The position numbers were made by a program, and so were the translations under genes. From a virus, in IMG/VR virus record IMGVR_UViG_3300037511_000475: 64,000 nucleotides of DNA, one strand, 5' to 3'. The notes under the pieces were generated by a model that saw only the letters and a list, made by a program, of their open reading frames with translations, had not been told where the DNA came from and did not search any database. Below are positions 657-44,525 of the stretch, piece after piece. Numbering within the stretch: the stretch's first letter is position 1; every line of letters begins with the position of its first letter.

Positions 657-1250
657 GTGTCTAGATCCCTGCTGATGGCTAACAGTACAACCCAGATGTC
701 ACGTCAACGAATCCCGTATACAGACGCCCAGATCCGGGGCATGAAAATCGTCGCTCAAATCCTGAAACAAGCCAGAACCCGTGAAGGCTGGTCTTTTCGT
801 GAATGCGCTGAGATTATTGGCGATCGCGCCGGGTATACATTTAACCATTCCAGGGTTCAACGCTTTGAGCGGGCAGGCACAGTCGTTGATAAGCGAACAC
901 AAGTAACGGAGGCCATAAATCCGCTGTACCTCAAAACAATACAGCCACTCACCCCTTACCCTTTAACGACATTAAAGGAGCTGTACGACGGCGAACTAAT
1001 AGATCTGTTTGATGAGGAGTCACCCGTGCTAGGAGCACTGATAGAACAAAAAGAAGATGAATTAGGTTCTCAGAAATTCCGGGCTGAATGCAAACGCCTT
1101 GGTTTGACCGAAGAAGAAATTATCGAAGCAAAGAAAGGCAACCTTTTATCAGGCAAGGTAATGATCGCTCTATCTTCCCTATTAAAGGTTCCCACGGATG
1201 AAGTGCAGCTAGCTGCACTTGCGCAACTAAACAACAACCTCGACAGTTAA
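657..1250 (+). CDS. XRE-family HTH regulator, candidate phage repressor, probably two HTH domains
   Basis: N-terminal LKQARTREGWSFRECAEIIG...HSRVQRFE HTH; second HTH-like segment at C-terminus; no S24 peptidase domain; two operators upstream. Confidence 0.75.
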   Translation: MSRSLLMANSTTQMSRQRIPYTDAQIRGMKIVAQILKQARTREGWSFRECAEIIGDRAGYTFNHSRVQRFERAGTVVDKRTQVTEAINPLYLKTIQPLTPYPLTTLKELYDGELIDLFDEESPVLGALIEQKEDELGSQKFRAECKRLGLTEEEIIEAKKGNLLSGKVMIALSSLLKVPTDEVQLAALAQLNNNLDS

Positions 1251-1266
1251 AGTTTTTGAAAGAGAA

Positions 1267-1310
1267 TCGACACAGCTAAATTAAGCACCCTGTTGATTAA
1301 GCTGTGTCGA
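1267..1310. terminator. long hairpin between convergent genes
   Basis: TCGACACAGCT...AGCTGTGTCGA, 11-bp perfect arms with an extendable inner stem. Confidence 0.6.
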
Positions 1311-1330
1311 TGCACTATCAGCGATTCAGC

Positions 1331-1588
1331 CTAATTGAAATCCGCCATTGGGCAGAGAACTTGCCGAGCGGTTTGATATAAATTACTAGCATGGCGATGC
1401 TTCGCAATGTCTATTGTTGTCATTAATTCTTCGCCCCAGTAAACGTCTATCAAATTGATTGATTTTTGCATTGCTTCCTGTTCAGCAGCAGGATACATTC
1501 GGTCAAAGTCGTCGAGGCAGTTTAGGTTCAGGGAGAACCTTCGTTGATGCGATTCGGACAGAGACATTTGTTCGAGCGGAGGTTTCAA
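1331..1588 (-). CDS. hypothetical protein, start uncertain
   Basis: ORF track; same strand as neighbouring operon. Confidence 0.4.
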   Translation of the reverse strand: MKPPLEQMSLSESHQRRFSLNLNCLDDFDRMYPAAEQEAMQKSINLIDVYWGEELMTTIDIAKHRHASNLYQTARQVLCPMADFN

Positions 1589-1690
1589 ATCATAATATTA
1601 ACGTTAATCTCCGTGGAAGACTAGCGACTTGCACGGAGATTAACACGGAGTTTATGTTAGTTTTAATTCCCTTGCGGAAGAGATCATTTG

Positions 1691-2086
1691 CTAGCGAGCC
1701 ACTAACTGTTTCTTGCTCTCCCAGCGAATAACCTTTAGGCTAGCCTGGATCCCTTGCCTGTAAATCCATTCAGTTGCATCAATCTGATTCCCAAACAGCA
1801 TCGGAACCCTGCACCCGTGTTCCAGGATCCCCACATCATTGATCAGTGATTCTTCGTACTCGCCGTCATCCGTATGTAATGCGATCGCCCATTGAACATT
1901 GACGCCTTTGATACTTTTAGAAACCCGATTTTCCATCAGGCCAAAAATTAGATCCCCATGGGGGGCATCGATTGACCTGGGCACCCCATCAATAATTAGC
2001 CAAACGCGATTATCAGCTAATTTTTCGATATAGCTAACTTTATTTAGGTCGATGAGGCGATCGCCAACTTGGTAGAGGTTCGTCAT
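1691..2086 (-). CDS. hypothetical protein
   Basis: 131-aa ORF, protein-like composition. Confidence 0.65.
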   Translation of the reverse strand: MTNLYQVGDRLIDLNKVSYIEKLADNRVWLIIDGVPRSIDAPHGDLIFGLMENRVSKSIKGVNVQWAIALHTDDGEYEESLINDVGILEHGCRVPMLFGNQIDATEWIYRQGIQASLKVIRWESKKQLVAR

Positions 2087-3023: not shown

Positions 3024-4496
3024 ATGCGGGCAATCCCTATTCTTAAAAATTCCGTGAAGGGTGCGATCGCGCCTCCTGCTGTTGAGTCTGGGTACAGGCT
3101 GCCTGATCCTCAGCCAGGTGGTCAGACTATATTTGCGTCTACAGATGCCGATATAGCTATATTTGGGGGCGCGGCAGGAGCGGGCAAGAGCCTTTCGTTG
3201 CTTTGCGATGCAGCTAAGTACATCGACAATCCTAAATATGGTGCTGTAATTTTTCGCGTAACGTCGCCTGAGATCACTAATGAAGGTGGCTTATGGGATG
3301 AATCCAAGGGCTTGTACACGGAACTGGGAGGGCGCGATCGCGAACATCTTTTAGATTGGCGGTTTCCCTCTGGTTCAGCTATCAGCTTTGGGCATACAGA
3401 CAAGCTCAAACAAAAATATCCAGGTGCCCAGATTGCGTACATCGGCCTGGATGAACTTGCATCTGAAGGTTGGACTTCTGATCTGTTCTGGTTCCTGCTA
3501 TCCCGTAACCGTTCAACCAGTGGGGTAAAACCTGTTGTACGGGCAACGTGCAACCCTAACGCTGATTCCTTCCTGGCTGACTTAGTGGCATGGTGGATTG
3601 ACCAAGAAACAGGCTACCCCATCCCAGAACGGCGCGGTGTAATCCGTTGGCTGTACCGAATTTCAGAAGAGATTTTCTGGGGTGATACCAAGGAGGAATT
3701 AGAAGAGAGGTTTCCTGAACAGGCGGCGATCGCCCCACCCAAAAGCTTCACGTTCATTTACGGCACCATCTACGAGAATAAGGCCTTACTAGATGCCAAT
3801 CCGCAATATCTAGCAAACCTGCTGGCACTGCACCCTGTCGAAATGGAGCGGCTGTTAAAAGGGAACTGGAAGGTGCGTTTCGAGGCGGGAACTATTTTCA
3901 ACCGCAATTGGTTTGAAGTAGTGGACTGGCTGCCAGGTGGCGCAGAGCTTTGCAAAGTCAGGTTCTGGGATTTCGCCTCTACTGCTGCATCGATGGCAAC
4001 CAGCACCAGTTACTATTCCGCTTCAACCAAGTGGGTGCGGATTGGGGATATTGATTACATCCTTGATTGCTACTGGGAACAGGTTGGAGGCGGGAATGAT
4101 GATTCAGTTAAAACCCTGGCTGAACAGGACGGTGCAGGCTGGTTGACTCGCTGGGAACTTGAAGGCGGTAGCGCTGCCAGTCGTTACGAAGCCCGATTGC
4201 AGGAAGACTTAGCAGGCTTTGATGCTTGCGGGGTTAAGCCATTAGGGGACAAGGTAACCAGGGCTATCCCCTGGGCACGACGGGCGCAGCAGGGCAAAAT
4301 TAAACTATTGCGTGGTGCGTGGAACGATCAGTTTCTATCCGCTGTCCACAACTTTGATGGTAAAAAAAGACCGCTTATCAACGATATTGTTGATAGCGGT
4401 TCTGGTGCTTATTCAGTTATTGAGGCAGAGGTTAGGCGATCGCCCGTTAGCCCTCCGATGGTTGGATCTAAGAAGTTGGCTAAGTTTGCGGGTTAG
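3024..4496 (+). CDS. terL: terminase large subunit
   Basis: Walker A GGAAGAGKS, Walker B YIGLDEL, motif III ATCNP, C-terminal RNase H-like RFWDFA...NDIVD. Confidence 0.93.
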   Translation: MRAIPILKNSVKGAIAPPAVESGYRLPDPQPGGQTIFASTDADIAIFGGAAGAGKSLSLLCDAAKYIDNPKYGAVIFRVTSPEITNEGGLWDESKGLYTELGGRDREHLLDWRFPSGSAISFGHTDKLKQKYPGAQIAYIGLDELASEGWTSDLFWFLLSRNRSTSGVKPVVRATCNPNADSFLADLVAWWIDQETGYPIPERRGVIRWLYRISEEIFWGDTKEELEERFPEQAAIAPPKSFTFIYGTIYENKALLDANPQYLANLLALHPVEMERLLKGNWKVRFEAGTIFNRNWFEVVDWLPGGAELCKVRFWDFASTAASMATSTSYYSASTKWVRIGDIDYILDCYWEQVGGGNDDSVKTLAEQDGAGWLTRWELEGGSAASRYEARLQEDLAGFDACGVKPLGDKVTRAIPWARRAQQGKIKLLRGAWNDQFLSAVHNFDGKKRPLINDIVDSGSGAYSVIEAEVRRSPVSPPMVGSKKLAKFAG

Positions 4497-5199: not shown

Positions 5200-5757
5200 T
5201 TACGCAGTGACTTTTGGCTTCAATCTCTTCACCCAGTCCCACGCATCTTTTTTGCGTAACCGGACAGGCATAATCACACCCGTCACGGCAAAATCACCGC
5301 GATCGCCCGTGGAACAGAACTTAACCATAGTTTCAGCGTCAATAATGTCAAAACTGATAAACCCTTGTGTCGCGATCGCGGCTTCACAAATTTGCTTTAG
5401 ATAGTGCGGGTCAAAGGTGATCTTGCTGCCTTCCTGCGTAGAGATAACCTCAGCAAAGTCCTTGCCTTCGCCTTCAGCATCGCACCACAACTCAACATAT
5501 TCAATGTCATACTCGCATGTGCCCAGTTCGGCAGGTGACAGCATTGCAATCCGATCATCATTGATGTCTTCATCAAAATCTTTGCAAACAGCAGATTTAA
5601 CACGCTCAATCCGCATTAATAACGCGCCATCCGTAGAAGAGATAGAGCCTTTGCCAATATGGATTTTCTTGAATTGATCGGGTAACGACATTTTGCCGGA
5701 TGCCGACAAAGCAACCCACTGCAAAACTTTCAGCAATTTACTTGGAACCGTGCTCAT
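5200..5757 (-). CDS. DNA sliding-clamp (DnaN)-like truncated protein
   Basis: SSTDGALL resembles clamp ATDGHRL; ITFDPHYLKQI and GVIMPVRL resemble the clamp C-terminal motifs. Confidence 0.55.
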   Translation of the reverse strand: MSTVPSKLLKVLQWVALSASGKMSLPDQFKKIHIGKGSISSTDGALLMRIERVKSAVCKDFDEDINDDRIAMLSPAELGTCEYDIEYVELWCDAEGEGKDFAEVISTQEGSKITFDPHYLKQICEAAIATQGFISFDIIDAETMVKFCSTGDRGDFAVTGVIMPVRLRKKDAWDWVKRLKPKVTA

Positions 5758-6154
5758 GTTTGACAAATCTCCATTTTTCAAGTTGTTCTTTATCGCGTAA
5801 ATCACATGATTTCCGCCATTCAATCAAGGCAACCAAGGCCAAATCAAAACTCATTCCCTGCACCTGGCTGTCCTTTTCACCTCTTGAAAGCACCATCCAA
5901 GGCAAGTCAGCCGAAAAACGGTAGATGCAACCGATATACTCATCCGGTTTGCCATTGCCACACAAATAGATATCGTGATGGCTCATAAACGGCGCTTCTT
6001 CGGCATCTGCATCGCAAAAGTGGTTTACATCGAAATCACCATGCCGATAATGCTTTGCATCCAGCAGGGTGCGAGCTTTCCATGCGGGCACAGAAGGGGC
6101 GATCGCCCTCTCCGCTGGTGCATCTCTGAATAGATCAAGCTGCGCTATCATCAC
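5738..6154 (-). CDS. hypothetical protein
   Basis: 138-aa ORF coupled to the resolvase gene. Confidence 0.6.
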   Translation of the reverse strand: MMIAQLDLFRDAPAERAIAPSVPAWKARTLLDAKHYRHGDFDVNHFCDADAEEAPFMSHHDIYLCGNGKPDEYIGCIYRFSADLPWMVLSRGEKDSQVQGMSFDLALVALIEWRKSCDLRDKEQLEKWRFVKHEHGSK

Positions 6155-6704
6155 TCAACTCCAGCGATCGCTCTGTCAGCAACTTCGCGGCGTGCATCAT
6201 CAGCACAGCTTCAGCCCGGTTATGATTCCGGGCATACTTGCCATTGCGTGACTTGTAGAAAATCTGATCTCTGATAGATGGGTAGAGTTTGATAGCCAGG
6301 GCGATCGCCTGCTCTTCGTCACTCCCCACAATCCCCAGCACCGATCGCCATTGCGCTGGCACTGCATTAATCACCCCTACGCCATGAACCAGCAAAAGCG
6401 TCTTCACCGCTTCATGGCTACGAATGAGCCCTTCTGCGCTCGCCATCTTGCTGGTATCGCGGCTATCAATGTGAACCTGCTCAACCAGGGCGATCGCCCT
6501 CTGCTTTCCAATCCTTTGACTGATAATTTTGTTAAGAGCTACCGAGTCATGCTGATAGAACGAATAGCGCCCTACCTGCCGTTTTTCGGGCAATGTAGGC
6601 ACCCCATGTAGATGCACCGTCCCATCCGGCATCAAAAACGAAAGTACCCCGGAACTACTGCCAGGGTCGAAACCTACGTAAATTGTGGAATTAGCTGATT
6701 TCAT
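6135..6704 (-). CDS. RuvC-like Holliday junction resolvase
   Basis: YVGFDPGSSSG, ALVEQV, NHNRAEAVLM acidic catalytic pattern. Confidence 0.85.
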   Translation of the reverse strand: MKSANSTIYVGFDPGSSSGVLSFLMPDGTVHLHGVPTLPEKRQVGRYSFYQHDSVALNKIISQRIGKQRAIALVEQVHIDSRDTSKMASAEGLIRSHEAVKTLLLVHGVGVINAVPAQWRSVLGIVGSDEEQAIALAIKLYPSIRDQIFYKSRNGKYARNHNRAEAVLMMHAAKLLTERSLELSDDSAA

Positions 6705-8830: not shown

Positions 8831-11581
8831 TTAGAGCAGTCTTAGCTCTGTGATTGGATAGGAACCGTAAAAGGTATCACCTTCAATTGTTGCTGTTGTG
8901 CAGTTTACGGAAACTACAACGCCGGAACCCTTGGAGCACTGAACTTTATCACCTGGCTTGTATTTGAATACGGTATGACCATTGGAAGCAACGGGTACAA
9001 GCTCTTTTTGTTCAGTTTCTGGTGGTATTGGCGGCGGTTCTGGTGGTGCAATAGGGGCGATCGCTTCAGTTGTAAGTGATGAGGCAAAAGCTATGCCCTC
9101 AATGCCTTTGCGGTTGTTGCCAATTGATACCAGTTTTGCCCGTGGAAACAACTTGGATATACGGTTAAAAATTTGGTTAGCACCCTTAACGTAAGGATCC
9201 CCAGGTCTTACATCGTTATCCCATACCCGGTTGCCGTGAATGTCAATCTTGAGAATCGGGGTATCTCCAGCCTTGTAAAACTCTTCAAGCTTGTCCCACA
9301 GATCCTTGACAGGAATAACGTTGTTTTTGTCGGCAACAAGATTGTAGGTTTTGGAGAACTCAAACAGGTGACTGTTTACGGATTGGGCTTCCTCTAGTGC
9401 AGCATCGCAGCAACTATAATCAATCCCCTCTTCCATCAAGGCCCGGAATGCATCCATGATTTTGTTAAGGAATGCAGGAAGGATATTGACTTGAATGAAG
9501 TCCTTAGAGTACTTGAATCTCGGATCCGCTTCAATCTCTCCGAGTTCTGGATTTGCTCCAATCTTGAAAGTTTTCAGGAAAGAAACGATCGCGAATCTGG
9601 ATTTAATGGCCTCCATCCCAGCTTTAATATTGGGGGTGTGGTTGATATTAAAGATGTGTACCGCTTTTGGGGTGAATGGTTCCGGGTCAACGCCTTTGCG
9701 TTCTAAGTGAAGTTCATCGCCTGAGATTGCTTGCTTTAATGCCTCTGAAGAGTCGAGGTTGACATCCTTTTTGTTTTCACTAGACCAATTTATTCGACTA
9801 CCAGGCAAAGGTATTAAAGTAAATTTTCGCCCTCCGTCATAGCCTGCAAAGTCCTGCGTACCCAATGATGTCATTCCGGTTCTCCCCCACAAAAGAGAAA
9901 CTGTTTCCCTGAGTGAGTCTTTACCATTGCTTCCATCACCGTAAGCCAATAAAGCTTTGATCCGCCCGTGTCGCTCTCTAACCTTTTCAACGTCTAGTGC
10001 AGCGGCGATCGTCCTCAAAAATACTTGCTGTTGTGGCTTGTCCAGGGCAGACAACAGGCGATCGCAATCCTCAGCATAAGCATCTGGGTTGTACTCAACC
10101 AGCGGCTCATACAGGTAATACATATCAGGTGAGTGAGGAATGAAGTTGAAGATGGGTGTGCGATCGCTGTAGGAAATCTGCAATACCCCATTCTTGCAAT
10201 TCAGCCCAGGCGGGTTGCATTTGTCGATAGACACGGCATTTAAGACCTTTACCCAGTCAAGCGCCTGATTTACCTTTTGGCGGCTTGCGTAAGGATATGT
10301 CTTTTCATAAATTGGGTTGCCGTTCTCATCCTTTGCCCTTGTCTTTTTAATTACGCAGGTTTCATCAGCCAATTTAGCAATGCGCTTTTCCTCAACCTCA
10401 TCAGGGCAATACTCGTAATGAGTTCCAGTCCATCGGTATAACTTGCTAGTAACGGAAATGTATCTGGTATCAGAGTAAAGCTTTCGTGCTGTAATCTGCG
10501 GAAAATCTCGCTTTACATGCTTTTCATCTTCCTCTGATTCAACCTCTTTTACTGGCTCATCATAAATAGCCTTTGGTCGTGGTGCGATCGCCTCATACTC
10601 TGCCAACGTCAAAAACTTGATAGCTTCACCGTCCAATTCATCGCAGTCGGGGAAGTCTTTTGTCTCTTGTCCCCACCATGCAATTTTCACGTTGTAACCC
10701 ATGTGCCGAACCAGATCTAGTGTCTGGTAGTCACGGCGCAAAACCTTGTCATTATCGATCGCCCCTGCATCTGGGTAGAAGATTATTTCCTGGCTACCAA
10801 TCTCAGCCGACAGCTTTTCAAGCGTTGATGCCAGCAGCCTGGATGAAGCAGAGAAATTGCCGCCAGATGCACCCACAAACACGCACCCTAAGCCCTGTGC
10901 AGCAATCCATGGCTTAAGGATGCCTTCTGCCAGTGCGATCGCCTTCACCTTCCCCTTTAGAGGTCGAGCAACAGTAATAGGCAGTTCACCCATGATGTGA
11001 GGTGTAACCCCTTCCGGACTTTTCTTGGTGCGGCTCGTAAGCCAACGGTAACGGCCTGCATCACTAGGCTGATTCAGTCGTAACTGAATGCCAATAATCA
11101 ATCCGCTACTGTTAAACGCAGGGCACAGGTAGCCATCTGCCGGAATATTTAGATTACGGCCTCCCTTCAGCACCCCTGGTAGCCGTTCATCAAATTCAGC
11201 TTTCAACCCCTGCCATTGCTTGACGGAACGGAATAAGCCAGCCTCGATCTGTTCTTCGGTAAGCCCTCGATCAAGTAAATCGGCTTTGTCACGATCCAAA
11301 AGAGTTAATTCAGACAACATTTGCCGATGAAGGCGATCGCGCTCCGACGCAGACAGGGACGTATCATTCAACTCTAACTCTGACTGCCGCGGCGATCGCT
11401 CCGGTGCAAACATTCCCCAAACTCCATCAGAGGTGATTCCGTTAAAATGCCAGCCAGTAGGAGCATCCTTTTGGCTGAGGATTTCCATGCATAGCTGCCC
11501 TCGCTCCGTTGTGCGACACTTACCAGATTCGTTGTTGCAGATTGGGCAGGGGTGATACTTGCTAGAAGGTGTGAGTGGCAT
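8831..11581 (-). CDS. phage/plasmid primase-helicase (Zn ribbon, TOPRIM-like primase, D5-like SF3 helicase)
   Basis: HPCPICNNESGKC; ALAEGILKP/FYPD/DFPDCDE; Walker A GDGSNGKDS; INWSSEN; FNIN. Confidence 0.9.
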   Translation of the reverse strand: MPLTPSSKYHPCPICNNESGKCRTTERGQLCMEILSQKDAPTGWHFNGITSDGVWGMFAPERSPRQSELELNDTSLSASERDRLHRQMLSELTLLDRDKADLLDRGLTEEQIEAGLFRSVKQWQGLKAEFDERLPGVLKGGRNLNIPADGYLCPAFNSSGLIIGIQLRLNQPSDAGRYRWLTSRTKKSPEGVTPHIMGELPITVARPLKGKVKAIALAEGILKPWIAAQGLGCVFVGASGGNFSASSRLLASTLEKLSAEIGSQEIIFYPDAGAIDNDKVLRRDYQTLDLVRHMGYNVKIAWWGQETKDFPDCDELDGEAIKFLTLAEYEAIAPRPKAIYDEPVKEVESEEDEKHVKRDFPQITARKLYSDTRYISVTSKLYRWTGTHYEYCPDEVEEKRIAKLADETCVIKKTRAKDENGNPIYEKTYPYASRQKVNQALDWVKVLNAVSIDKCNPPGLNCKNGVLQISYSDRTPIFNFIPHSPDMYYLYEPLVEYNPDAYAEDCDRLLSALDKPQQQVFLRTIAAALDVEKVRERHGRIKALLAYGDGSNGKDSLRETVSLLWGRTGMTSLGTQDFAGYDGGRKFTLIPLPGSRINWSSENKKDVNLDSSEALKQAISGDELHLERKGVDPEPFTPKAVHIFNINHTPNIKAGMEAIKSRFAIVSFLKTFKIGANPELGEIEADPRFKYSKDFIQVNILPAFLNKIMDAFRALMEEGIDYSCCDAALEEAQSVNSHLFEFSKTYNLVADKNNVIPVKDLWDKLEEFYKAGDTPILKIDIHGNRVWDNDVRPGDPYVKGANQIFNRISKLFPRAKLVSIGNNRKGIEGIAFASSLTTEAIAPIAPPEPPPIPPETEQKELVPVASNGHTVFKYKPGDKVQCSKGSGVVVSVNCTTATIEGDTFYGSYPITELRLL

Positions 11582-11657
11582 ATATAATGCAGGTTAAGAA
11601 GGTTTTTCACTTGAATCCCCGGTGCTCCATCGCCGGGGATTTCGCTTTTCTGGGGGT

Positions 11658-11676
11658 TGGATTCTATTACAATACG
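11658..11676. promoter_or_regulatory. operator motif A
   Basis: TGGATTC TATTA CAATACG upstream of primase. Confidence 0.6.
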
Positions 11677-11678
11677 CT

Positions 11679-11825
11679 TTAGCCAACCTTTTGTAGATAC
11701 GCACCCACGATTTCTCGCACCACTGTAGTGTAGGTTCCGCCTTGTTGTCTGGCGATCGCTTCAATCTTGGCAACCTCTTCATTAGAGAACCTTACGCCTA
11801 CTACCTTTGTCTTTTTTGATGGCAT
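11679..11825 (-). CDS. ribbon-helix-helix (CopG/Arc-like) regulator, 48 aa, not in ORF track
   Basis: MPSKKTKVVGVRFSNEEVAKIEAIARQQGGTYTTVVREIVGAYLQKVG. Confidence 0.75.
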   Translation of the reverse strand: MPSKKTKVVGVRFSNEEVAKIEAIARQQGGTYTTVVREIVGAYLQKVG

Positions 11826-11876
11826 TTTTCAGACTCCAATCCTTCATAGTTAACACTCTTACCATGTTAACAATTC

Positions 11877-11895
11877 TGGCTTGAAATACAATACA
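11877..11895. promoter_or_regulatory. operator motif A, CAAGCC half-site variant
   Basis: TGGCTTG AAATA CAATACA; paired GTTAACA repeats at 11849-11872 lie between it and the RHH gene. Confidence 0.7.
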
Positions 11896-11896
11896 T

Positions 11897-12622
11897 TTAC
11901 TCTAAAATTTTGGGTTTTCCGATCGCCCAACCCTGACACAGATCGACATGGGTATAGTCGCGAACAAAATTGACTTGCCCCTGCTCAACCATCTCTAAAA
12001 TTACTTTAATTCCACGTGCGTGGGCAATAGCGCAGTAAGCGTTAATGTCTGCGATCGCCGCTGGATCTGGCAGCCGCTTCGTGTTCCACCCATCGACCTT
12101 GAGGTATTGAGGCTGCAATAGTTCCAAGCTGGCTACACTAAAACCGCCATCGGGTGCCCCGAAATCGTCTACAGCCAAAGGGCATCCTACGGCTCTGACA
12201 AAGCTTAGAACTGATTGAGCGATCGCCGTATTAGCAACCGCGCCTCTTTCGGTCACTTCAAAGATTAGAGGAATCTTATCTAATTTATAGAGTGCTTGTT
12301 GTGCCAACAAAAACTTTGAGAACTGCCCATTCATGTTGATCGTCGCAGGTGATAGGTTCACCGCATATTTATCCTGGGTGCCAGTGCGAGCCAAGTATGC
12401 CAGCGTAAGGGCTATTACATGGCGATCGAGAAAATGAATGAGACTGTGACCTTCCAGCCACTCAACAAAATGAAGGGGCGATCGCAGCACTCCATTTTCA
12501 CGGAATCGGCTAAGGATTTCGTAGTGAGAGATTTCGCCCGTGTGGATATTGGCGATCGGTTGCTGAAAAAGCACGATCGATTCGTTTAGGAGGAATTGAA
12601 TGTCTGGGGTAAAGGGCATCAC
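11897..12622 (-). CDS. stand-alone EAL-domain cyclic-dinucleotide phosphodiesterase
   Basis: FQQPI, YEILSR, AVNLS, IFEVTE, AVDDFG, LKVD, ILEMVE, CQGWAIGKP. Confidence 0.93.
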   Translation of the reverse strand: MMPFTPDIQFLLNESIVLFQQPIANIHTGEISHYEILSRFRENGVLRSPLHFVEWLEGHSLIHFLDRHVIALTLAYLARTGTQDKYAVNLSPATINMNGQFSKFLLAQQALYKLDKIPLIFEVTERGAVANTAIAQSVLSFVRAVGCPLAVDDFGAPDGGFSVASLELLQPQYLKVDGWNTKRLPDPAAIADINAYCAIAHARGIKVILEMVEQGQVNFVRDYTHVDLCQGWAIGKPKILE

Positions 12623-13191
12623 TGTTCTGTACTGGTGATGAGGCTAACGTAAGCGGTAACAGTGGCAGAAATCCAAAACTGATTAGTGCGTTGGCTGCTG
12701 TAGAGTAAAGCCTCACGCATCAATCGCTGGCTAATGAAGTCTAGCCCTTTCGTGTTGGACTGCATCCCGTTGGCGATCGCTACTAACCCTTCACAGATCA
12801 TCCGCAACAGTGTCGCTGTGTGCCTGCCAGGCACGGAAATATAAACCCCTTCATCCAGTAAAGGGATTTCTTTGCCTTTTGAAGTGAAAGCGGAAAATTT
12901 AATTACAAAATTCGGCGGCTGGTAGTAGAAGAGGGCATATATCGCTCTTTTACTTGGCTCACGTCTTTCGAGTCGTAGAACATCCGCAATGATTTGCTTA
13001 TTAAGGATTGTTGTGTCCTCAGAAGGTTCTCCCCTATGTAAGGGCAGCGCAACAATACGGTACTTAAACGGAAAACCTTGAATAAACCCATCAGCATAAT
13101 ACAAATACCCTTGTACTTTTCTAGCATGTAGACCGTATTCAATTTTGTGCCGTTTTTTTTGGCGGGGACACTGCCAAGGGAGCCATCGCAT
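12619..13191 (-). CDS. hypothetical protein coupled to the EAL gene
   Basis: 190-aa ORF; stop overlaps EAL start (ATGA). Confidence 0.7.
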   Translation of the reverse strand: MRWLPWQCPRQKKRHKIEYGLHARKVQGYLYYADGFIQGFPFKYRIVALPLHRGEPSEDTTILNKQIIADVLRLERREPSKRAIYALFYYQPPNFVIKFSAFTSKGKEIPLLDEGVYISVPGRHTATLLRMICEGLVAIANGMQSNTKGLDFISQRLMREALLYSSQRTNQFWISATVTAYVSLITSTEQ

Positions 13192-13193
13192 TA

Positions 13194-13508
13194 CTAATCC
13201 TCATTTTTTGCTTTATCCAAAACGTACTTAGCGATCGCACCCATAGCAGCACCAACACCGGATACCTGGAGAATCTGCACCAGGATTTCACCAGATAAAT
13301 CAAAACTCAGCCAGTCAGTTTGAATTCTCAGCCCAAAAGCCAAGACTAAAATCAAGCCCAGGAACGTAGCACCCGCAACGGTCACGCGGTCAATATCAAA
13401 AGCGTTTCGCCTGATTTTTCGCCAGAGGTCGCTAACAATTTGCTCCTGTTCATCCTGGCGAGATTCAATATTTCGCAAACGATCTTCAAAATCTTGCATT
13501 GTGCTCAC
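13194..13508 (-). CDS. coiled-coil plus two-TM membrane protein (holin-like)
   Basis: Charged N-terminal coil, then VTVAGATFLGLILVLAFGL and ILVQILQVSGVGAAMGAIAKYV, basic tail. Confidence 0.55.
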   Translation of the reverse strand: MSTMQDFEDRLRNIESRQDEQEQIVSDLWRKIRRNAFDIDRVTVAGATFLGLILVLAFGLRIQTDWLSFDLSGEILVQILQVSGVGAAMGAIAKYVLDKAKNED

Positions 13509-13563
13509 CGGGCTATCTTATTCAATTTTCGCTACGTCTCCCGGTATAAATTTATGCTTCAGG

Positions 13564-13575
13564 AAAAAGTCACGG
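13564..13575 (+). promoter_or_regulatory. candidate late-promoter motif B
   Basis: AAAAAGTCACGG upstream of tail fibre 1. Confidence 0.6.
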
Positions 13576-13636
13576 CATAAGCCGTATTTGGTTTAGATGG
13601 AGGGCGATCGCCCCTAAATTTGAGGATGAGGCTTTA

Positions 13637-16503: not shown

Positions 16504-16788
16504 ATGAACCTTTTTGTGGCTGAATGCGATCGCCAATCTGGTGAAATCCTCAATACCACACTTCACCGTGAGGTGGATGTAACCTACGACCCCGAAACCC
16601 TTGAAGTATCCAAGCTCGCCATTCCTCTAATGCAAGGCGTGATCTATTTCGTGGTGCCAGACGAGAAGCGGTACTACTGCCAGATCGGGGGGATGTGGGA
16701 GCTAAACACACTTCCGCCTACATGGATTCTTCCCACACCTCCCGAACTACCACCAATTGAAGAAGTACCGCCTGAAGAAGAATCTTAG
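16504..16788 (+). CDS. fibre-associated small protein (possible chaperone)
   Basis: Directly follows fibre gene; Pro/Glu-rich tail. Confidence 0.55.
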   Translation: MNLFVAECDRQSGEILNTTLHREVDVTYDPETLEVSKLAIPLMQGVIYFVVPDEKRYYCQIGGMWELNTLPPTWILPTPPELPPIEEVPPEEES

Positions 16789-17969
16789 GCAATCCCAGCC
16801 AATGCTTTCACGCGATTGACTACGGCTTTATCTTCTGGCTGTAGCGGCGCGCCGTTTGTTACCTTGGCGATCGCCTCAATCATCCCCTTGGCATCCTCTG
16901 ACTTACCCTCATCGACGGGGAAGTGCCCAAAATCATCTAATCCCTGGTAATTAAACAGGAGCATCGGCTTAACAATCTTTTCGATCAATTGCCCTCCAAC
17001 GTTGTGCATGTTGGACTTGACAACGATGGACAGGATCTTGTTATGACCTTCACTCAGTCCACTATCACCTGTACCGGATAAATTGCTTCCGAGTGCTGTT
17101 TCGGGCACTAGCCAACACAATGCGATCATCCGCTCAAACAGTTTCAAGCAAGATTCAAACATTGCTGGTGTACCCTGTTGGGCGATCGCCTCAATATCGT
17201 CCTCAAGACCAATCACTATTGCAGAAGCATTTTCCAGGTCTTCCATGCGTTTTAACATCGCATGGCCTTGATTGATTTTTATGGGTTTGCCGTGTTGATC
17301 TAAAATCGTTACGCCATTTTCATCAATGCGATCGACCGATGCCGTAATGTCTGTTTTCCCTACCGTAATCGGTGTGGCTTGACGCTGGCAGGCTACCAAA
17401 AGACAAGCAGTAGCAATTTTATAGGCTTCCCAGTAAGGGAGTGCCCGTTTGGCAGGTGAATACCCATAGGGAGAATTGTCGATCACTAAATGTTCTTGAT
17501 TGACCAGGTGTATCCCCTCTTCGTAGGGAATAAGGATATTGCCCTCTGTCGACCTGTATTCAACCTCTTTTATTCCACCAGCGGAACCGCGAAACGAATA
17601 TCGCCTCGGATCTAGGGTGAGCATCCGATCGAGAACGGCACGACCGGATGAAGTATCAAAAGCCCTCTCAGTGAAGCTAAACCCGTAATAGGTGTAGTTC
17701 ATCGCCTTAGCAACTGCGCTCATCCAAGATCCGTTCATCTTGGCAAAACTTGCGCGTACTTCTGCCTGGATATCTTCCGTTGGCCCTATATAGTCCTGGA
17801 TGTATGTCAACCCTAACAGCACAGGTAGTTCGGCATAGGCTGCTACAACCGGGTGAGACAGCATTTCATAGTAATCATCAAGCGAGTATCGATCTTTGCG
17901 GTTGACGCTTGCCAATATTTGAGAGGCGATCGCCTCAACAGCAGGTGTAAGAATTTTTGTTGAAATCAT
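16785..17969 (-). CDS. portal protein (DUF935 / Mu gp29-like)
   Basis: AMNYTYYGFSFTE, SPYGYSPAKRALPYWEAYK, CQRQATPITVGK, LGSNLSG...LSEGH, IEKIVKPMLLFN pattern. Confidence 0.8.
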   Translation of the reverse strand: MISTKILTPAVEAIASQILASVNRKDRYSLDDYYEMLSHPVVAAYAELPVLLGLTYIQDYIGPTEDIQAEVRASFAKMNGSWMSAVAKAMNYTYYGFSFTERAFDTSSGRAVLDRMLTLDPRRYSFRGSAGGIKEVEYRSTEGNILIPYEEGIHLVNQEHLVIDNSPYGYSPAKRALPYWEAYKIATACLLVACQRQATPITVGKTDITASVDRIDENGVTILDQHGKPIKINQGHAMLKRMEDLENASAIVIGLEDDIEAIAQQGTPAMFESCLKLFERMIALCWLVPETALGSNLSGTGDSGLSEGHNKILSIVVKSNMHNVGGQLIEKIVKPMLLFNYQGLDDFGHFPVDEGKSEDAKGMIEAIAKVTNGAPLQPEDKAVVNRVKALAGIA

Positions 17970-19162: not shown

Positions 19163-19222
19163 AGCTCATTCCAATTATGGTTGATTTAGCCCTAAAACTC
19201 CAACTTTTTATACTTGTGCGCT

Positions 19223-20383
19223 ATGCCTGACTACCAGATCTATTTATATGGCGAAATTGGCGATAGTTGGTGGGATGAAGAGCCGCTGACAGCCAAGGCG
19301 ATCGCCGCTCAATTGGAAGAAATCCCATTGGATTCTGAGATTGAATTGCGTATCAATAGCCCTGGTGGTGATCTGGGTGAAGGTTTGGCGATCTATTCCC
19401 TGCTGAAGGAGCGCGCACCCTACATAACGGCGCGTGTAGACGGTTATGCCTTAAGTGCTGCCAGTTTCATCCTGTGTGCAGCATCTAAGGTTGTAGCGTC
19501 CGACTCTTCAATTTTCATGATCCACAACCCGCACACCATCTCCTACGGCGATGCAAACGCCTTAAGGAAAACAGCGGATGTGCTAGATACCCATCGCAAT
19601 GCAGTGCTGGGGATTTACCGCGACAAAACAGGTAAATCGGATAGTGACATCATCACTGCACTAGATGACGAAACTTGGTTTACCGGGGAAGAAGCGGTCG
19701 AATTTGGCCTTGCTGATGAGTTGAATAATGAGGCGATCGCCGAACCCGTAAAAAATTCTTTGCCGCCATGGTTGAAGGTTTCAGCCAGTGCAAAGAAGAA
19801 GCTGAAAGCCGCTGGCTTGATGCCCAAACAAAGCCGCGTTGCGGCAAAAGCCAACACCTTACCAAAGGAGAAAACAACAGTGCCTAATGAAGAAGAAAAA
19901 ACGCAAAAAATCGACAATGAAGCCCAAAGCACCGTCGAAATGAAAGCTTTGCTGGCACGGGTAACCGACCTGGAAGCTCAGGCCAAAATGCAGAGTGAAG
20001 CGATCGCAGCCAAAGATCGCGAACTGGCAGAACTGAAGCGGAAAGATGCTGTTACCGCCCTTTATACAAAGGTGCGTAACATGGCTGATTCTTTGGTCAA
20101 GAGCAATTCACCCAAGCTTTCCACGGCTGAATTTGAAGCACTGGGGTTTACCGCTGATGCTGATGCCGACATCAAAAACTTTTTGGCTGATGACAATGCG
20201 GAAACCGCCTTAAAGCAGGCTAATTTCTACGTTGAAATGGCTAAGCATCGTCCTCCCATGCTCCAAACAAAGCTTCAAACGGGTGATGAGCCCTTGCCCG
20301 AAAAGGAGCCTGCAAGCCCTGAACAAGATGAACAGTATCAGGCAGACATGGCACGCTTTGAAGCTCGACTGAAGCGCAAGTAA
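19223..20383 (+). CDS. ClpP-like prohead protease with C-terminal scaffold region
   Basis: LRINSPGGD, ALSAAS, MIHNP, DETWFTGEEAVEFGLAD; coiled-coil C-terminus. Confidence 0.92.
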   Translation: MPDYQIYLYGEIGDSWWDEEPLTAKAIAAQLEEIPLDSEIELRINSPGGDLGEGLAIYSLLKERAPYITARVDGYALSAASFILCAASKVVASDSSIFMIHNPHTISYGDANALRKTADVLDTHRNAVLGIYRDKTGKSDSDIITALDDETWFTGEEAVEFGLADELNNEAIAEPVKNSLPPWLKVSASAKKKLKAAGLMPKQSRVAAKANTLPKEKTTVPNEEEKTQKIDNEAQSTVEMKALLARVTDLEAQAKMQSEAIAAKDRELAELKRKDAVTALYTKVRNMADSLVKSNSPKLSTAEFEALGFTADADADIKNFLADDNAETALKQANFYVEMAKHRPPMLQTKLQTGDEPLPEKEPASPEQDEQYQADMARFEARLKRK

Positions 20384-21347: not shown

Positions 21348-22385
21348 GTGCAAGTAAAGGATTTTCTTGACAAGCATAAATATACGATCGATAAACAGGT
21401 CGATATTACAACCCAAGAGCTATTAATGCGTGAAGGGTTGATTCAGACCTACTTCCCGATCGACACTTACACCGATTTTGACGTGATGATTTTGCGTGTT
21501 CGGCAGAACAAGCAACTCGCTCACATCATCGGTATTGATGGCGAGATTCCGGAAAGCAAGGCTGGCTCAATGAGCATGGCGATCGCACAAGAGATCAAGA
21601 TTGGGCGATCGCATGTTTACACCGAAAGCGATATGAAGCTTCTCAAGCGTTGGCAGGAAAACATTCGAGGCATCCCCGACGATGTTCGTGACTATTTCTT
21701 TGGTACCGCTGCCAGCCATCCACAGGCCATTCTGGATACGCATAATTTGCTGTGTGTGCAACTGATGTATTCCGGCACAATCAATTACACGGATCCCATT
21801 ACAGAAGTTGCTGTAAGTCAGACTTACCCAACTGAATCATGGCAATATCCATCAGCGTTGAGTGGCGGCGCACGATGGAACCAGGCAACAGGAAACTGCC
21901 TCACGAACCTCCGTGATCATGCTCGTGAATATCGCCGGCGTCTAGGCTTTACGCCTGACATCTTAATCAACGAAGACACCGTTGATCTAATGCTGGAACA
22001 GACGGCAGTAAAAGAAGCAGCACTAGCCCGAAAAGGCGTGAATCTTGATACTGCTGGTGTTGCAGCCTACGACGTGAGCATCGATGAACTGCAAGACCTG
22101 CTTGATGTTCGGCGCGCTGGAACACTTCGCATTTTCGATGAGAAATACGAAGACTTTGATGGCGTTGAGCAATTCTTTATGCCGGAGGGGTATTACGCCT
22201 TTGCTATTCCCGATATGGGGGATAGCGGTCTAATGCCCGTACCTAGTAACAACATGGCAAGCGGTATTTACGTGTTCTCCGAGGAGCTATCTAAAGAGCC
22301 TCCTAAAGATCGCACCGTTGGCGTAGCTAATACGGCGATCGTTGTTGACGATATTCGCCGCCTGGCTGGTCGCAAAGTTTACTAA
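21348..22385 (+). CDS. major capsid protein (lambda gpE-like family)
   Basis: 345 aa; position; LIQTYFP, AVSQTYP...ARWNQ, FMPEGYYAF pattern of Phage_cap_E. Confidence 0.85.
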   Translation: MQVKDFLDKHKYTIDKQVDITTQELLMREGLIQTYFPIDTYTDFDVMILRVRQNKQLAHIIGIDGEIPESKAGSMSMAIAQEIKIGRSHVYTESDMKLLKRWQENIRGIPDDVRDYFFGTAASHPQAILDTHNLLCVQLMYSGTINYTDPITEVAVSQTYPTESWQYPSALSGGARWNQATGNCLTNLRDHAREYRRRLGFTPDILINEDTVDLMLEQTAVKEAALARKGVNLDTAGVAAYDVSIDELQDLLDVRRAGTLRIFDEKYEDFDGVEQFFMPEGYYAFAIPDMGDSGLMPVPSNNMASGIYVFSEELSKEPPKDRTVGVANTAIVVDDIRRLAGRKVY

Positions 22386-28920: not shown

Positions 28921-31900
28921 ATGCCGACCATTTTAGATACTTTGCTGTTAGAGGTTGACCTCGACCCTTCACGTTACGCCGCAAAGATTGGTCAACTTAG
29001 AACTGATGCCATGGCATCGGCTAAAGAGGTTGAGAGCGTATTTAAGAGCGTCAACGCAACACTATCGGCGAAGGTAGACGATCGCGCACTGACTGCCCTA
29101 AACAAGCACTTAGACCTAAAACAGGCGCACTTTGCCCAGGTACGGCGTGATTTTCAACAAAACCCGTTGAAGCCAAGGGTGGATTTCAAGGATTTAGACA
29201 ACCTTGAACGGCGATTAAACCGTCTCAAAAGCGGTTCCTTCAACGTAAATATCTCTGCATCCGGTGGCACTTCGTCCGGTTCTCATCAGCAAATGGCGGA
29301 TGCGATCGGGCGCGCGGTTGCTAAACATTCCCGCCCTTCTACTGTTTCGCGTATCGTGGGTGGAGTTGCAAATGCTGCAACAGCACCTATTCGTGCTGCC
29401 CTGGCTATCCCCTCGCAGGTCATCAGCCAATCTGCACAAGGGATTGCCTTTGGTGTAGCCAATGAGGTTTCTAAGAATCTTGGGAAAGGTTTATCTACTG
29501 CACTTGAATCAGCCGTTTCACGTTCATTCGGTAGCACTGAGCTAATTGGTGAAAAGCTGGGTGGTGCAGTTGGTGCAGCGGTTGTTGACGCTTTTGGCGA
29601 TCGCATTAAAAGCATCCCAGATTTACTTGAAAAAGCGATCGATCGCATCCAATCCCCAAAGAAACGTGCTGAACTCAAAAAAATGCTGGCAACCATCCAG
29701 GAAGTTCCTGGGGTTGTGCGTAAGCAGGCAGTTGACACCTTGGGGGGTGAAGCCGCTGTAGCTCAGGAAGGGATGGCTGTACGGCAATCCCAGCGCAAGC
29801 GCAAGCAAGCCAAAAAGCCAGCAACGCAAGAGGGTGCGGCAACTGAATGGCGCGATGCCCTATGGAATCGTGATTTAGTAAACGCTGAAGCAGGCGATCG
29901 CCGTACCGCCAACGACAAACAACGCGCCATCCTCCAACGGCAGGGACAAGAGGCACAAAAGGCCTTTGCCGACTTAAACAAACAACTTGAAGAGGCGAAA
30001 GCAACAGGCGACAAAGAGTTAGAGGCTGAAACCAATAAGGCGATCGCCCAGGTATCAGCGATCGCCATGGGTACAGTTGAGGCGATCGAGCAACTTGAAA
30101 AGCTAGACACGGAGATAGCTAAGGAAAGTCAAAAAGCTGATGAACGCGTGAAACAGGCATACGCCCGCTATCAAAGCGTTATGCCACGGCAACGCCCAAA
30201 ATCTTATGAAGATTTATTCAGCCAAGCGACGAAAGGTGCTGTCAGTCAAGAAAAGATGCCAGTGCTGCGAGTAGCTGATACCAAACTTAAAAAGATTGGT
30301 GCAAAGGCGCAATATGATGTTGCCCGCAACGCAATCGAGGTTACGCGTGAAACCTATGATGCGATCGTTTCTGGTACTCTGACCAATGCACAACGTGAAA
30401 CCCTTCTAGAAGAGTTGAATCATGCTGTAGATTTTGACTTTGGCTCTTTCAAAGGAATGCAGGCGGCAAAATCAAGGCGCGTAGTGGGGAAACCTGTCAC
30501 ACCTACGGCTGAAGAGTTTGCAAAGCTTGCGCCTGAATTGGGTTTATACTCACCCGATCGCCGTGCCCTGGAATTAAACGCCAAAGTGAAGGCGATGCGC
30601 GATCTGGATGCTGTAAGCCAATCTTCGCGGCAAGCCAAAAACCTTGAGTTGGTGCCAGAAGTTGCTGTAAATAAGCTGAAAATAGAGCGGCAACGTAAAC
30701 TATTTGATGCTCAACTAGGTTGGCTGGATGAACAGGGAGCAGCTAAAGGAGTTGATGTTTCCGGCTTTGTTGGCAAGTATCGCGAATTGTTTGATGATCT
30801 TGACTCAAAGATCACGGGGCTGGTTAGTTCTGTCACTGAAGCCGGATTAGATGCGGATCCGGCAGAAGTTGAAGCCGCTATCAAAAAGATGGAGGCTTAT
30901 TGGAGCACCCTTGAGACTCTAAACACCAAACTTCAAGAGCGGATTAAGCTCACGGCTCAAGGCGTTGGGCCTAAGCCTGAGTCAGCATCGCTCGCTCGCA
31001 CTACACAGGCGATCGCTCAACAATCTGGCGAGGGCAAAACGGTCAGAGAGCGGGTTAATGATGTGGCCTACCAAGCAGGGGCGATCGCAGGCAATGCAGC
31101 GGGTGCAATGCGGTCTGTTATTGGCTCCCCTCAAGTGCAGGCGATCGGGAAATTTACTGTTGGAGTTTACAAAGCTTCAGAGGCGATCGAAAGTCTCGTT
31201 TTAGACCTGGTTCCTTTTGGACGGATTGCCAAGGGCACTATTAAAAATGTTGCCGCTCCAATGGCTATGTACGGGGCTGCAACCCATCTGTTACCCGGTG
31301 GTGCTGCATTGGGTGAAGCCATCACCCACACAGCGCAGATGGGGCTTACTCCTATCGGAAACATGGTTTCCGGCGGAATGATGGATGCTGCATCGGCAAC
31401 TATCAGTCACTTGCCCGGTGCATTTGGCATTCAGCAAGCTGTTTCCGGTGCTGTTAGTGCTGGAATTGAATCACTTACCCAGGCGGGTACAGCGGCGATC
31501 GCCTCTGTCGGTACTGCCCTCATCGGCGGAAAAGCGATGCAGAATGCTGCTGCGATGCCATTGAAGGCGATCGCCCCTGGTTCTGCGTTGCAACTTCAAT
31601 CTGCACAACAAAAAGCTTTGCCTGGTAGTAACGCAGCAGCAGCCCTGACGTTAACATCCCCTACAACACTGAATGAGGCAAAAACAAAAGCTGTAGAAGC
31701 CGCATATAAAGCCGGTCAGATGGCAGGAGAGGCGATCGCCAATGTCCAAGAACTAATCGATGCTGGTAACGCCCTGGTTGGCAATGTCTCAAGCGCTTAT
31801 GCCAACCTGAAAGATGCTATCAAAACCGCTGAAAAGGCGATGAAGACAGGCGATCAAGGGGCGATCGCCGAAACACAACGTAACGTAAAAGCGTACGAAG

Positions 31901-39049: not shown

Positions 39050-39691
39050 CTAATCAACATGCTTCCAGATTTCACGCCTTACGATGTAACCAACCAGGCT
39101 AAAGTGAACGCTGTACTTTTCCGCTATTTGGGAATAACTCAAGCCACTAGCATGCAATTGTCGAATTTCGCGCACTTGCGATTCCTTGAGCTTAGAATTT
39201 ATCTGCTTTTCACCTTTGTATGAACGCCCAGAAACAACCATATCATTGCTATTTTGCTGTGGCGTCCCTGCATATAGATGCCTTGGATTTATGCATTTTC
39301 GGTTATTGCATTTATGGCAAGCAATTATTTGACGCCCAATCAATTGAAAGCCCTGCTGCTGAAGGACAAAGCGATGTAATGAAATCTTTTTGCCGTTAAT
39401 CATCATCTCGGGATAGCCATTGGGCCTGACATAAACATCGGGTTCCAAGCATCCTGTCTCGGGAATCTCTTTCAACCTGCCTTTTTCCCTCAGCTGTTCA
39501 ACTACATCCTTACTAGGATCAATGCAAGGCGATGGTCGATATCTGCGCTTGACATCCTCACATGAAGCCTTTAAGAGCTTTGCGACCGTAGGGTAAACAA
39601 CCCCGCACCGTTCCGCAATCTCCTTTACTGGAACACCTTGGTTATAAAGCTCGATAATTTTCGCGTTTCGCTTCTGTGTGCGCTTAAGCAT
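39050..39691 (-). CDS. HNH homing-type endonuclease with N- and C-terminal HTH domains
   Basis: LHRFV...ACHKCNNRKCINPRHLYAGTPQQNSNDM; LKESQVREIR...SYSQIAEKY; ATG 39691 preferred. Confidence 0.9.
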   Translation of the reverse strand: MLKRTQKRNAKIIELYNQGVPVKEIAERCGVVYPTVAKLLKASCEDVKRRYRPSPCIDPSKDVVEQLREKGRLKEIPETGCLEPDVYVRPNGYPEMMINGKKISLHRFVLQQQGFQLIGRQIIACHKCNNRKCINPRHLYAGTPQQNSNDMVVSGRSYKGEKQINSKLKESQVREIRQLHASGLSYSQIAEKYSVHFSLVGYIVRREIWKHVD

Positions 39692-39707
39692 ATTCAACCT
39701 CGCAAGA

Positions 39708-39726
39708 TGTATTGTAATAGAATACA
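39708..39726. promoter_or_regulatory. operator motif A
   Basis: TGTATTG TAATA GAATACA upstream of HNH. Confidence 0.75.
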
Positions 39727-39759
39727 AAACGGTCAAAAAAACACCTTAGGGCGATCGCC

Positions 39760-40000: not shown

Positions 40001-40060
40001 ATTAGGGGCGATCGCCTTCATTGATTGAATAGAGTAGATACAGCATCGCTCCTTCAGCCA

Positions 40061-40981: not shown

Positions 40982-41319
40982 TGACATTCGATGCTTTGCC
41001 TTTGCGCTATCAGTGGGAAGGTGATTTTAAGACAGAAGGACAGTTAATAGTTAATCAGTATCAAAACGCTGTACGGCAATCTAGACGGCGAAACCGCATT
41101 CGGCACGTTATCGAGAGCGGCACTGTGACAGCTTTTGCTGATGATTTTGAACAAGCTGAAAACATGGATGAATTCCTTAGAAGTACACCTGGCAGAATCT
41201 TTAAGTTAGCCAGCGGGGATACAAAGCTATGGCGTTGCATTCAATACAGTAAAGCACTGCAAGGGGCAAAAGGTGAAACGTCTTTTACCCTACAAATCAT
41301 GCAGGTTTACAAGCCTTGA
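40981..41319 (+). CDS. second gpM-like tail protein
   Basis: NQYQNAVRQ, MDEFLR, WRCIQY, SFTLQIMQVY; TAATG overlap. Confidence 0.6.
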   Translation: MTFDALPLRYQWEGDFKTEGQLIVNQYQNAVRQSRRRNRIRHVIESGTVTAFADDFEQAENMDEFLRSTPGRIFKLASGDTKLWRCIQYSKALQGAKGETSFTLQIMQVYKP

Positions 41320-41320
41320 A

Positions 41321-41339
41321 TGTATTGTAATACGATACA
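41321..41339. promoter_or_regulatory. operator motif A
   Basis: TGTATTG TAATA CGATACA upstream of thyX-like gene. Confidence 0.8.
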
Positions 41340-41369
41340 ATTTAGAGAGTAATTTTGCGAGTTTTGCTT

Positions 41370-43622: not shown

Positions 43623-43655
43623 GCCAAAATAGAAATTCAACTCGCAAGACCTTTG

Positions 43656-43687
43656 GCCCCTGGGTAAAAATCCAGGGGTTTTCTTTT
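43656..43687 (+). terminator. intrinsic terminator
   Basis: CCCCTGG-GTAAAAAT-CCAGGGG-TTTTCTTTT. Confidence 0.8.
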
Positions 43688-43694
43688 GCCCGTG

Positions 43695-43994: not shown

Positions 43995-44050
43995 TGGGAT
44001 TGATGGAAAATTGAGAAATGAGTGAGGGCGATCGGGTGGGTTAGAATTGG

Positions 44051-44299: not shown

Positions 44300-44339
44300 C
44301 AGGGGCGCGATAAGTTTTTGCGATCGCCCCTAGTCCTTC

Positions 44340-44358
44340 CGTATTGCTTATCAATACG
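44340..44358. promoter_or_regulatory. operator motif A (perfect, C-G outer pair)
   Basis: CGTATTG CTTAT CAATACG. Confidence 0.8.
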
Positions 44359-44524: not shown

Positions 44525-44525
44525 G

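Follow-up and report, generated by a model that had tools for sequence, protein, structure and literature searches.

Phototactic motility, aggregation and exopolysaccharide production of cyanobacteria, traits which shape soil crusts and blooms, are under the control of c-di-GMP. Genes for its turnover are also found on mobile DNA. ZpdA (VC0515) is encoded on the VSP-2 island of Vibrio cholerae (PMC12607878), and DgcX hitch-hikes beside lambdoid prophages in Escherichia coli (PMC4287979); both retune biofilm formation and motility of the host from mobile DNA, as the gene described here may do. A Mu-like virus that carries a diguanylate cyclase is a further mobile precedent. Pseudomonas phages produce peptides that bind YfiN (PMC8085984) and the protein Dap1, an inhibitor of the phosphodiesterase DipA (PMC12846349). 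Searching the literature, we found no paper in which a phage-encoded EAL enzyme was described or tested; the phage effects that were found act via small inhibitors of host enzymes. The closest described enzyme in sequence and structure is RbdA (PA0861) of P. aeruginosa (PDB 8pps, 5xgb-5xge), an active phosphodiesterase with a membrane-bound PAS-GGDEF-EAL architecture under allosteric control. Stand-alone EAL proteins are known from bacteria, namely PdeH (YhjH) of E. coli, VcEAL of V. cholerae (6ifq) and Lmo0131 of Listeria (4q6j). Like the protein studied here they consist of a single domain without sensor, and transcription is expected to determine their output.

The EAL gene, its catalytic residues and its fold

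The window, i.e. the whole stretch of 64,000 nucleotides of IMG/VR virus record IMGVR_UViG_3300037511_000475, contains in its list of open reading frames a minus-strand frame at 11897-12622. The protein encoded there starts with the ATG at 12619 and not with the GTG at 12622, which leaves a coding sequence of 240 codons for amino acids (11897-12619). The upstream frame ends with ...CAG TGA, and the ATG of the EAL gene lies inside the resulting TGATG. In the contig of a close relative the TGATG junction was likewise found kept, and no in-frame GTG precedes the ATG of the EAL gene there, so translation almost certainly begins at 12619. Gene callers likewise picked the 240-aa form (P0002). Residue numbers in this paper were counted from the GTG, i.e. 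in the 241-aa form.

Using the curated gathering score of 31.3 bits as cutoff, the Pfam family EAL (PF00563) was found with 121.9 bits (E-value 3.4e-35), with residues 12-237 of 241 aligned to profile positions 9-236 of 236. No second Pfam domain, neither a sensor nor a GGDEF domain, was found in the frame, and a hydropathy scan of the protein detected no hydrophobic or transmembrane segment. GC content (0.483), GC3, codon usage and density of the HIP1 octamer described below were similar to those of core phage genes.

For the analysis of the active site an alignment of 56 EAL sequences, the window protein plus its best database relatives, was employed. All signature residues were present: E35 (EIL), R39, N89 (VNLS), E122 and E125 (FEVTE), D152/D153 (DDFG), K175 (LKVD), E210 (LEMVE) and Q230 (QGW). 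Fourteen columns were invariant (Q21, E35, L37, D66, S91, E122, E125, D152, D153, G155, K175, E210, Q230, G231) and those of R39 and N89 were each conserved in 55 of the 56 sequences; in all of these columns the window protein matches the consensus. The metal/phosphate-binding pair of the E-x-L-x-R motif (E35 and R39) is found within YEILSR. The metal ligands N89 (N-L-S), E122 (E-x-T-E), D152 and D153 all fall into columns that are invariant or conserved in 55/56, and the columns of the catalytic lysine K175 (K-x-D), the general-base glutamate E210 (at the E-G-V-E position) and the glutamine Q230 (Q-G) are all three invariant. Thus no substitution affects any of the ten signature residues (0/10), whereas degenerate EAL domains have lost several of them. 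The importance of the EAL catalytic base has been stated before (PMC12900916).

One element deviates from the canonical pattern. Loop 6 retains E125, the glutamate which stabilizes it, and the DFG, but is longer by 2 residues and lacks the S-S; at the place where G-x-S-S is usual the window protein reads DDFGAPDGGFSV. The segment from the DD to the K-x-D measures 24 residues in 53 of the 56 sequences and 26 residues only in the window protein and its 73% identical relative (P0003). A loop 6 of similar form was seen in a fragment of 122 aa with 68% identity. The S-S is missing in the whole stand-alone clade described below, in which the ten signature residues are invariant. From studies of RocR, loop 6 is reportedly needed for binding of metal and substrate and for dimerization. 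A requirement of EAL loop 6 for activity was also described in PMC5845226. As the whole clade deviates from the canonical loop 6 and two extra residues are present here, activity or specificity could differ from those of typical EAL enzymes.

The alignment was used to build an AlphaFold2 model, which reached a mean pLDDT of 93.8 and a pTM of 0.91. The best 50 PDB matches obtained with Foldseek were all EAL domains, with TMq values of 0.73-0.88 (at least 0.79 for 49 of them). Active EAL phosphodiesterases were at the top (TM 0.84-0.88), namely RbdA/PA0861 (0.87-0.88), MorA, Bd1971, TBD1265, RocR and YahA; EAL structures of the FimX type were also among the good matches. RbdA was the closest solved relative by sequence, too (E-value 1e-22, about 33% identity). 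In the viral structure library BFVD no EAL-like fold was matched at an E-value of 0.001 or below. Judged by Foldseek, the predicted fold is that of an EAL domain and not that of the 2H phosphoesterases to which Acb1-type anti-CBASS enzymes belong. With all criteria of sequence and predicted fold in agreement except for a canonical loop 6, we file the 240-aa protein as a member of the EAL family and, with this one exception, of its catalytically competent class.

A sequence-only reading of this locus had described a phage-encoded, stand-alone EAL phosphodiesterase with all metal and catalytic positions present and an atypical loop 6. The catalytic set was confirmed by columns with few or no deviations among the 56 EAL sequences, and the atypical loop (DDFGAPDGGFS) by its two additional residues compared to 53 of these 56 and by the absence of G-x-S-S. 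The lack of a sensor and of GGDEF was borne out by the single Pfam domain. The open reading frame was given correctly there, while its start had to be moved from the GTG at 12622 to the ATG. That the gene is encoded by a phage agrees with the terminase, portal, protease, capsid, tape measure, gpJ and D5 primase genes around it (Table 1).

The gene block, the phage genome and the host

The EAL gene is the last of three minus-strand genes without gaps between them, preceded by genes for a 104-aa protein and a 190-aa ORFan. The intergenic region upstream of the block is its presumed promoter region, and the spacer downstream of the EAL stop codon is probably the boundary of the transcription unit. 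For the 190-aa ORFan no match was obtained in Pfam, PHROG or PADLOC, and homologues were found only on its own contig and on a 946-bp contig from another run (L017). The latter carries an EAL gene whose product is 73% identical and, upstream of it and with the same junction, a 58-aa C-terminal piece of a homologue of the 190-aa protein (phmmer E-value 4.5e-23). The ESM Atlas model of the ORFan was poor, and its structural resemblances all stayed below a TM of 0.5. Prediction of a complex of the EAL protein with the 190-aa protein gave a score of 0.00 and a pLDDT of 35 for the partner, values which speak neither for nor against binding.

The 104-aa protein resembles a 157-aa membrane protein encoded on an unrelated phage contig (L010; 27% identity over 104 aa, E-value 1e-8). 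As that protein is encoded between an EAL gene and an endolysin gene, a holin-like role of the 104-aa protein appears plausible by analogy. PADLOC detected no defence or anti-defence signature among the proteins of the block. A scan of the window with Rfam yielded no family, and hence no c-di-GMP riboswitch in the window.

Table 1. Coordinates of features in the window and on contigs of relatives
Contig	Feature	Position	Strand	Remarks
Window	Large terminase	3024-4496
Window	D5-type primase-helicase	8831-11581		Preceded by 48-aa RHH gene (ParG/NikA-like); D5_N/DUF5906 Pfam matches
Window	71-nt spacer	11826-11896	-	3' of EAL stop; repeats GTTAACA...TGTTAAC; precedes 48-aa RHH gene and D5-type primase-helicase
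Window	EAL gene	11897-12619	-	240 aa, single EAL domain (Pfam PF00563, AlphaFold2, Foldseek)
Window	Loop 6, DDFGAPDGGFS	12137-12169	-	Metal-binding Asp pair and DFG kept, 2-residue insertion, no canonical G-x-S-S
Window	190-aa ORFan	12619-13191	-	Stop overlaps EAL start (TGATG); starts 2 nt after preceding stop
Window	104-aa protein	13194-13508	-	First gene of block; charged, coiled-coil-like N-terminus; hydrophobic segments 39-64 and 75-93
Window	Divergent intergenic region	13509-13636	.	Between EAL block (-) and 954-aa fibre-like gene (+); small GC hairpin
Window	Mu-type portal	16785-17969
Window	ClpP-like prohead protease	19214-20383
Window	Major head protein	21348-22385
Window	Tape-measure-sized ORF	28921-38970		3349 aa
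Window	Minor tail proteins and gpJ-like tip protein	40025-47656
L010	Tail genes, EAL, 157-aa membrane protein, endolysin	10001-11995
L018	FHA protein	5373-6185	-	Two C-terminal hydrophobic segments; convergent neighbour of P0008-like EAL gene
L003	HD/HDOD-domain gene (HDIGK motif)	1003-1281		Downstream of P0008 EAL gene, overlapping
L002	Sigma-70-region-2 factor	1191-1886	-	Contig of a Sphaerospermopsis MAG

The window represents the genome of a tailed phage assembled from a soil metagenome, and its DNA was matched in one run, which is labelled soil metagenome. The EAL protein is on record on a contig of 79 kb, of which the window covers all but about 15 kb. In addition to the genes listed in Table 1, small terminase-like, dCTP-deaminase-like, ThyX, SSB and Bro-N genes and a gene for a protein with a LexA DNA-binding domain were found in the window. 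Several features of the genome deserve mention in their own right. The single 3349-aa frame in the position of the tape measure is exceptionally long for a phage of roughly 79 kb. Between it and the distal tail genes, on the minus strand at 39050-39736, lies a gene whose 228-aa product combines two HTH domains with a weak match to the HNH/His-Me finger; this product may be a homing endonuclease. The gene for the thymidylate synthase ThyX (41355-42170) is located inside the distal-tail block. The small-terminase-like and the dCTP-deaminase-like gene follow each other at 49256-50378, about 18 kb (counted circularly) from the large terminase gene. The protein with the LexA DNA-binding domain (56572-56946, 124 aa, Pfam E-value 2e-16) is too short to contain an S24 cleavage domain.

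No integrase gene was seen in the annotated parts of the 64-kb window. At the DNA level the window and the region had no match among INPHARED phages and PLSDB plasmids (megablast) or in IMG/VR. A search with the capsid protein matched only remote capsids of Bacillus and Geobacillus phages, which marks the phage as one without cultured relative. Relatives of the primase, sought for the presence or absence of the EAL gene in sister phages, were not found.

With respect to the host, the octamer GCGATCGC, known from cyanobacteria as the highly iterated palindrome HIP1, occurs in 220 copies in the window compared to 0.9 expected copies. This corresponds to 3.4 per kb, in coding and non-coding DNA alike; the octamer was found in every gene examined, with 3 copies in the EAL gene. 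A relative of the EAL protein is encoded in a Sphaerospermopsis MAG. Based on the 220 HIP1 sites and on this relative, a cyanobacterial host is well supported. The heavy load of HIP1 suggests a long residence in hosts rich in this octamer.

Relatives and origin of the EAL protein

A HMMER search of 1.84 billion representative proteins yielded only 5 matches below an E-value of 1e-30, all of them short proteins. The five best matches were the 73% identical P0003, the fragment at 68% identity and then stand-alone EAL proteins of 236-265 aa with 34-41% identity. Multi-domain proteins came next (31-41% identity); the one which was looked up was cyanobacterial (Scytonema, Chroococcidiopsis). Sequenced relatives at or above 68% identity thus number two only. 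Above 41% identity a pattern scan of 185,579 species genomes found no relative. Close relatives of the EAL protein were not detected in IMG/VR, JGI metagenomes or these 185,579 genomes, where the sole match, at 27% identity in an actinobacterial MAG, is irrelevant.

In a maximum-likelihood tree of 56 EAL domains the window protein grouped with P0003, P0004/P0009, P0008, P0010 and P0011 (SH-aLRT 92). Together with P0017 this group makes up an eight-member clade, which was split off from the 48 other sequences (45 from multi-domain proteins, 3 short) by a long branch of length 1.14 with an SH-aLRT of 95. Placement inside the clade is uncertain, given long end branches. The ten signature residues are invariant among its eight members despite identities of only 31-39%. 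For the EAL genes of the window and the 73% relative a pN of 0.20 and a pS of 0.71 were calculated (the latter corresponding to a saturated dS of about 2.1), which gives a dN/dS of about 0.11 and indicates strong purifying selection.

All located members of the clade on contigs long enough to judge were found in viral or mobile contexts. P0017, which was found on 12 contigs from several runs, is encoded on the 69-kb phage contig L010 between tail genes and the genes for the membrane protein and the endolysin. On the IMG/VR viral contig L018 a P0008-like gene is located downstream of the gene for the major head protein. P0159/P0010 adjoins a large serine recombinase of the phage-integrase type on contig L013, and P0004/P0009 adjoin a divergent sigma-70-region-2 factor amid ORFans on contigs L002 and L004. 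The HD/HDOD protein encoded next to P0008 on L003 could be responsible for a second phosphodiesterase step, such as the removal of pGpG. The window shares with the contigs of these relatives only the EAL gene, and with L010 also the membrane protein. Judged by its sequence, the EAL protein belongs to a divergent lineage present in several unrelated viruses. What is encoded next to the clade members, i.e. a sigma factor, an FHA membrane anchor, a holin-like membrane protein or an endolysin, speaks for reprogramming of the host or for late functions and not for immunity.

Two groups of candidate phage EAL proteins were discarded. The EAL match in Cyanophage AS-1 (DQ115821.1, "contig_14", obtained by tblastn) is a GGDEF-EAL fragment on 1670 bp; with this and its GC content of 72% the contig is very probably bacterial contamination. 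The other EAL matches in INPHARED stem from faecal contigs that are unverified or from bacterial assemblies entered as phage.

Function and comparison with known systems

The most likely function of the protein, in which we place moderate confidence, is that of a constitutive c-di-GMP phosphodiesterase which lowers the c-di-GMP level of the host. Domain and predicted fold, the full catalytic set, the purifying selection, the phage context and the recurrence of the clade in viral contigs all speak for it. The phage would produce a soluble, sensor-less EAL enzyme inside its cyanobacterial host, and this enzyme, judging from its family membership, would hydrolyse c-di-GMP to pGpG, provided that the non-canonical loop 6, as we infer, still supports catalysis. 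As the protein has no input domain, its level of activity would be fixed by the timing with which the phage transcribes the three-gene block, and the two presumably co-transcribed proteins may have a role of their own. Many EAL domains which look intact have little activity unless an activating partner is present. The resulting drop in c-di-GMP would lead to less aggregation and exopolysaccharide and to an altered behaviour of type IV pili. Such a shift could favour spread of the virus or benefit a lysogen.

A wider interpretation appears possible to us, though doubtful. A virus-restricted lineage of minimal EAL proteins with a remodelled loop 6 might be deployed by cyanophages, together with small membrane-anchored partners (holin-like proteins with two transmembrane segments here and in L010, FHA proteins with two such segments elsewhere), as a takeover module. 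This module might erase c-di-GMP locally at the membrane, affecting pili, exopolysaccharide or the timing of lysis, or might have a broadened specificity that includes immune dinucleotides.

That the protein serves counter-defence was the second half of the interpretation offered by the sequence-only reading, and we consider it unlikely. On this view the EAL enzyme would spare the phage abortive infection by degrading immune cyclic dinucleotides, namely 3'3'-cGAMP or the c-di-GMP that CdnE-type CBASS produces for STING-TIR effectors. An altered loop near the substrate would fit such a role, and the absence of a sensor is what one expects of a takeover protein. However, the proteins of the block had no PADLOC or anti-defence match, and next to the clade members there are genes for sigma factors, FHA anchors and lysis-type functions, not anti-defence islands. 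To our knowledge, no EAL fold is found among the known anti-CBASS enzymes. A survey of phosphodiesterases of jumbo phages likewise lists HD-GYP, DHH, calcineurin-like and 2H families, while EAL is absent. Immune nucleotides are a known target of phages, which break them down or sequester them (PMC7824862), and the claim that some EAL proteins cleave cGAMP holds true: the stand-alone VcEAL (PDB 6ifq family) is described in PMC12607878, which cites Yadav et al. 2019, as degrading c-di-GMP and cGAMP.

Slightly less probable still is a non-enzymatic protein, a c-di-GMP sensor or protein-binding regulator like FimX, LapD or YdiV/STM1697, which would bind c-di-GMP or a host protein (e.g., a regulator of pili or flagella), possibly at the membrane via the protein with two transmembrane segments. 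The clade-wide deviation of loop 6, the consistent pairing of the EAL protein with small membrane-anchored proteins and the FimX-type structures among the good Foldseek matches are compatible with this, but in contrast to the degenerate EAL domains of receptors every catalytic and metal-binding residue has been kept at 31-39% identity, and a retained general base E210 and retained metal ligands make little sense in a pure binder.

It is very improbable that the gene is a neutral hitch-hiker or an inactive host-derived remnant without any role for the phage: the window sequence was matched in one DNA run only and there are just two relatives at or above 68% identity, but dN/dS is about 0.1, the translational coupling is conserved, no homologue from a host exceeded about 41% identity among 1.8 billion representatives or 185,579 species genomes, members of the clade turn up independently in further viral contigs and the composition is fully phage-like.

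A recent capture from a host, which the sequence-only reading had named, for an unexpressed gene, as one case that would speak against its interpretation, is rejected on the basis of the distant relatives, the other viral contigs with members of the clade, the selection on the gene and its phage-like composition; in addition, the 73% relative keeps the junction with the ORFan. The phylogeny against other EAL proteins, proposed there as a check, placed the window protein in a separate stand-alone clade. Overall, a phage-encoded, stand-alone and catalytically intact EAL protein without recent capture stood up to the analysis of sequence, fold, conservation and selection. The part concerning CBASS or STING-type signals gained no specific support, with no defence or anti-defence signature in the operon. 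Lowering of host c-di-GMP is thus left as the most economical reading.

If this reading is true, a phage-borne constitutive phosphodiesterase would represent a direct viral switch of motility, aggregation and exopolysaccharide production. The conserved virus-associated clade offers several natural variants for testing, and should immune dinucleotides be cleaved as well, a new fold would join the anti-CBASS repertoire. At present the locus offers a solid annotation and a good candidate for experiments rather than a new mechanism.

Comparing the locus with the known systems, clear differences are visible. RbdA shares its catalytic residues and its barrel with the phage protein, which is, in contrast to the multi-domain enzyme, a bare domain; the loop 6 of RbdA, DDFCAGMSSF, is two residues shorter than DDFGAPDGGFS. 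PdeH/YhjH, VcEAL and Lmo0131 are chromosomal, housekeeping or regulated, and have a canonical loop 6, while the phage protein falls into its own long-branched clade. ZpdA, which is under the control of Zur and HapR, belongs to a genomic island, and DgcX is a cyclase encoded adjacent to prophages and not within them, whereas the EAL gene of the window forms part of a phage genome, with replication and structural genes around it. In contrast to the loci of some other clade members, the window contains neither an FHA nor a sigma factor gene, and the partners of its EAL protein are the putatively holin-like protein with two transmembrane segments and the ORFan. The YfiN-binding peptides and Dap1 likewise are means by which phages interfere with c-di-GMP and motility of the host, but they are small binders of host enzymes. 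The phage of the window would supply a hydrolase of its own, and its predicted effect, a lower c-di-GMP level, is opposite to that of Dap1.
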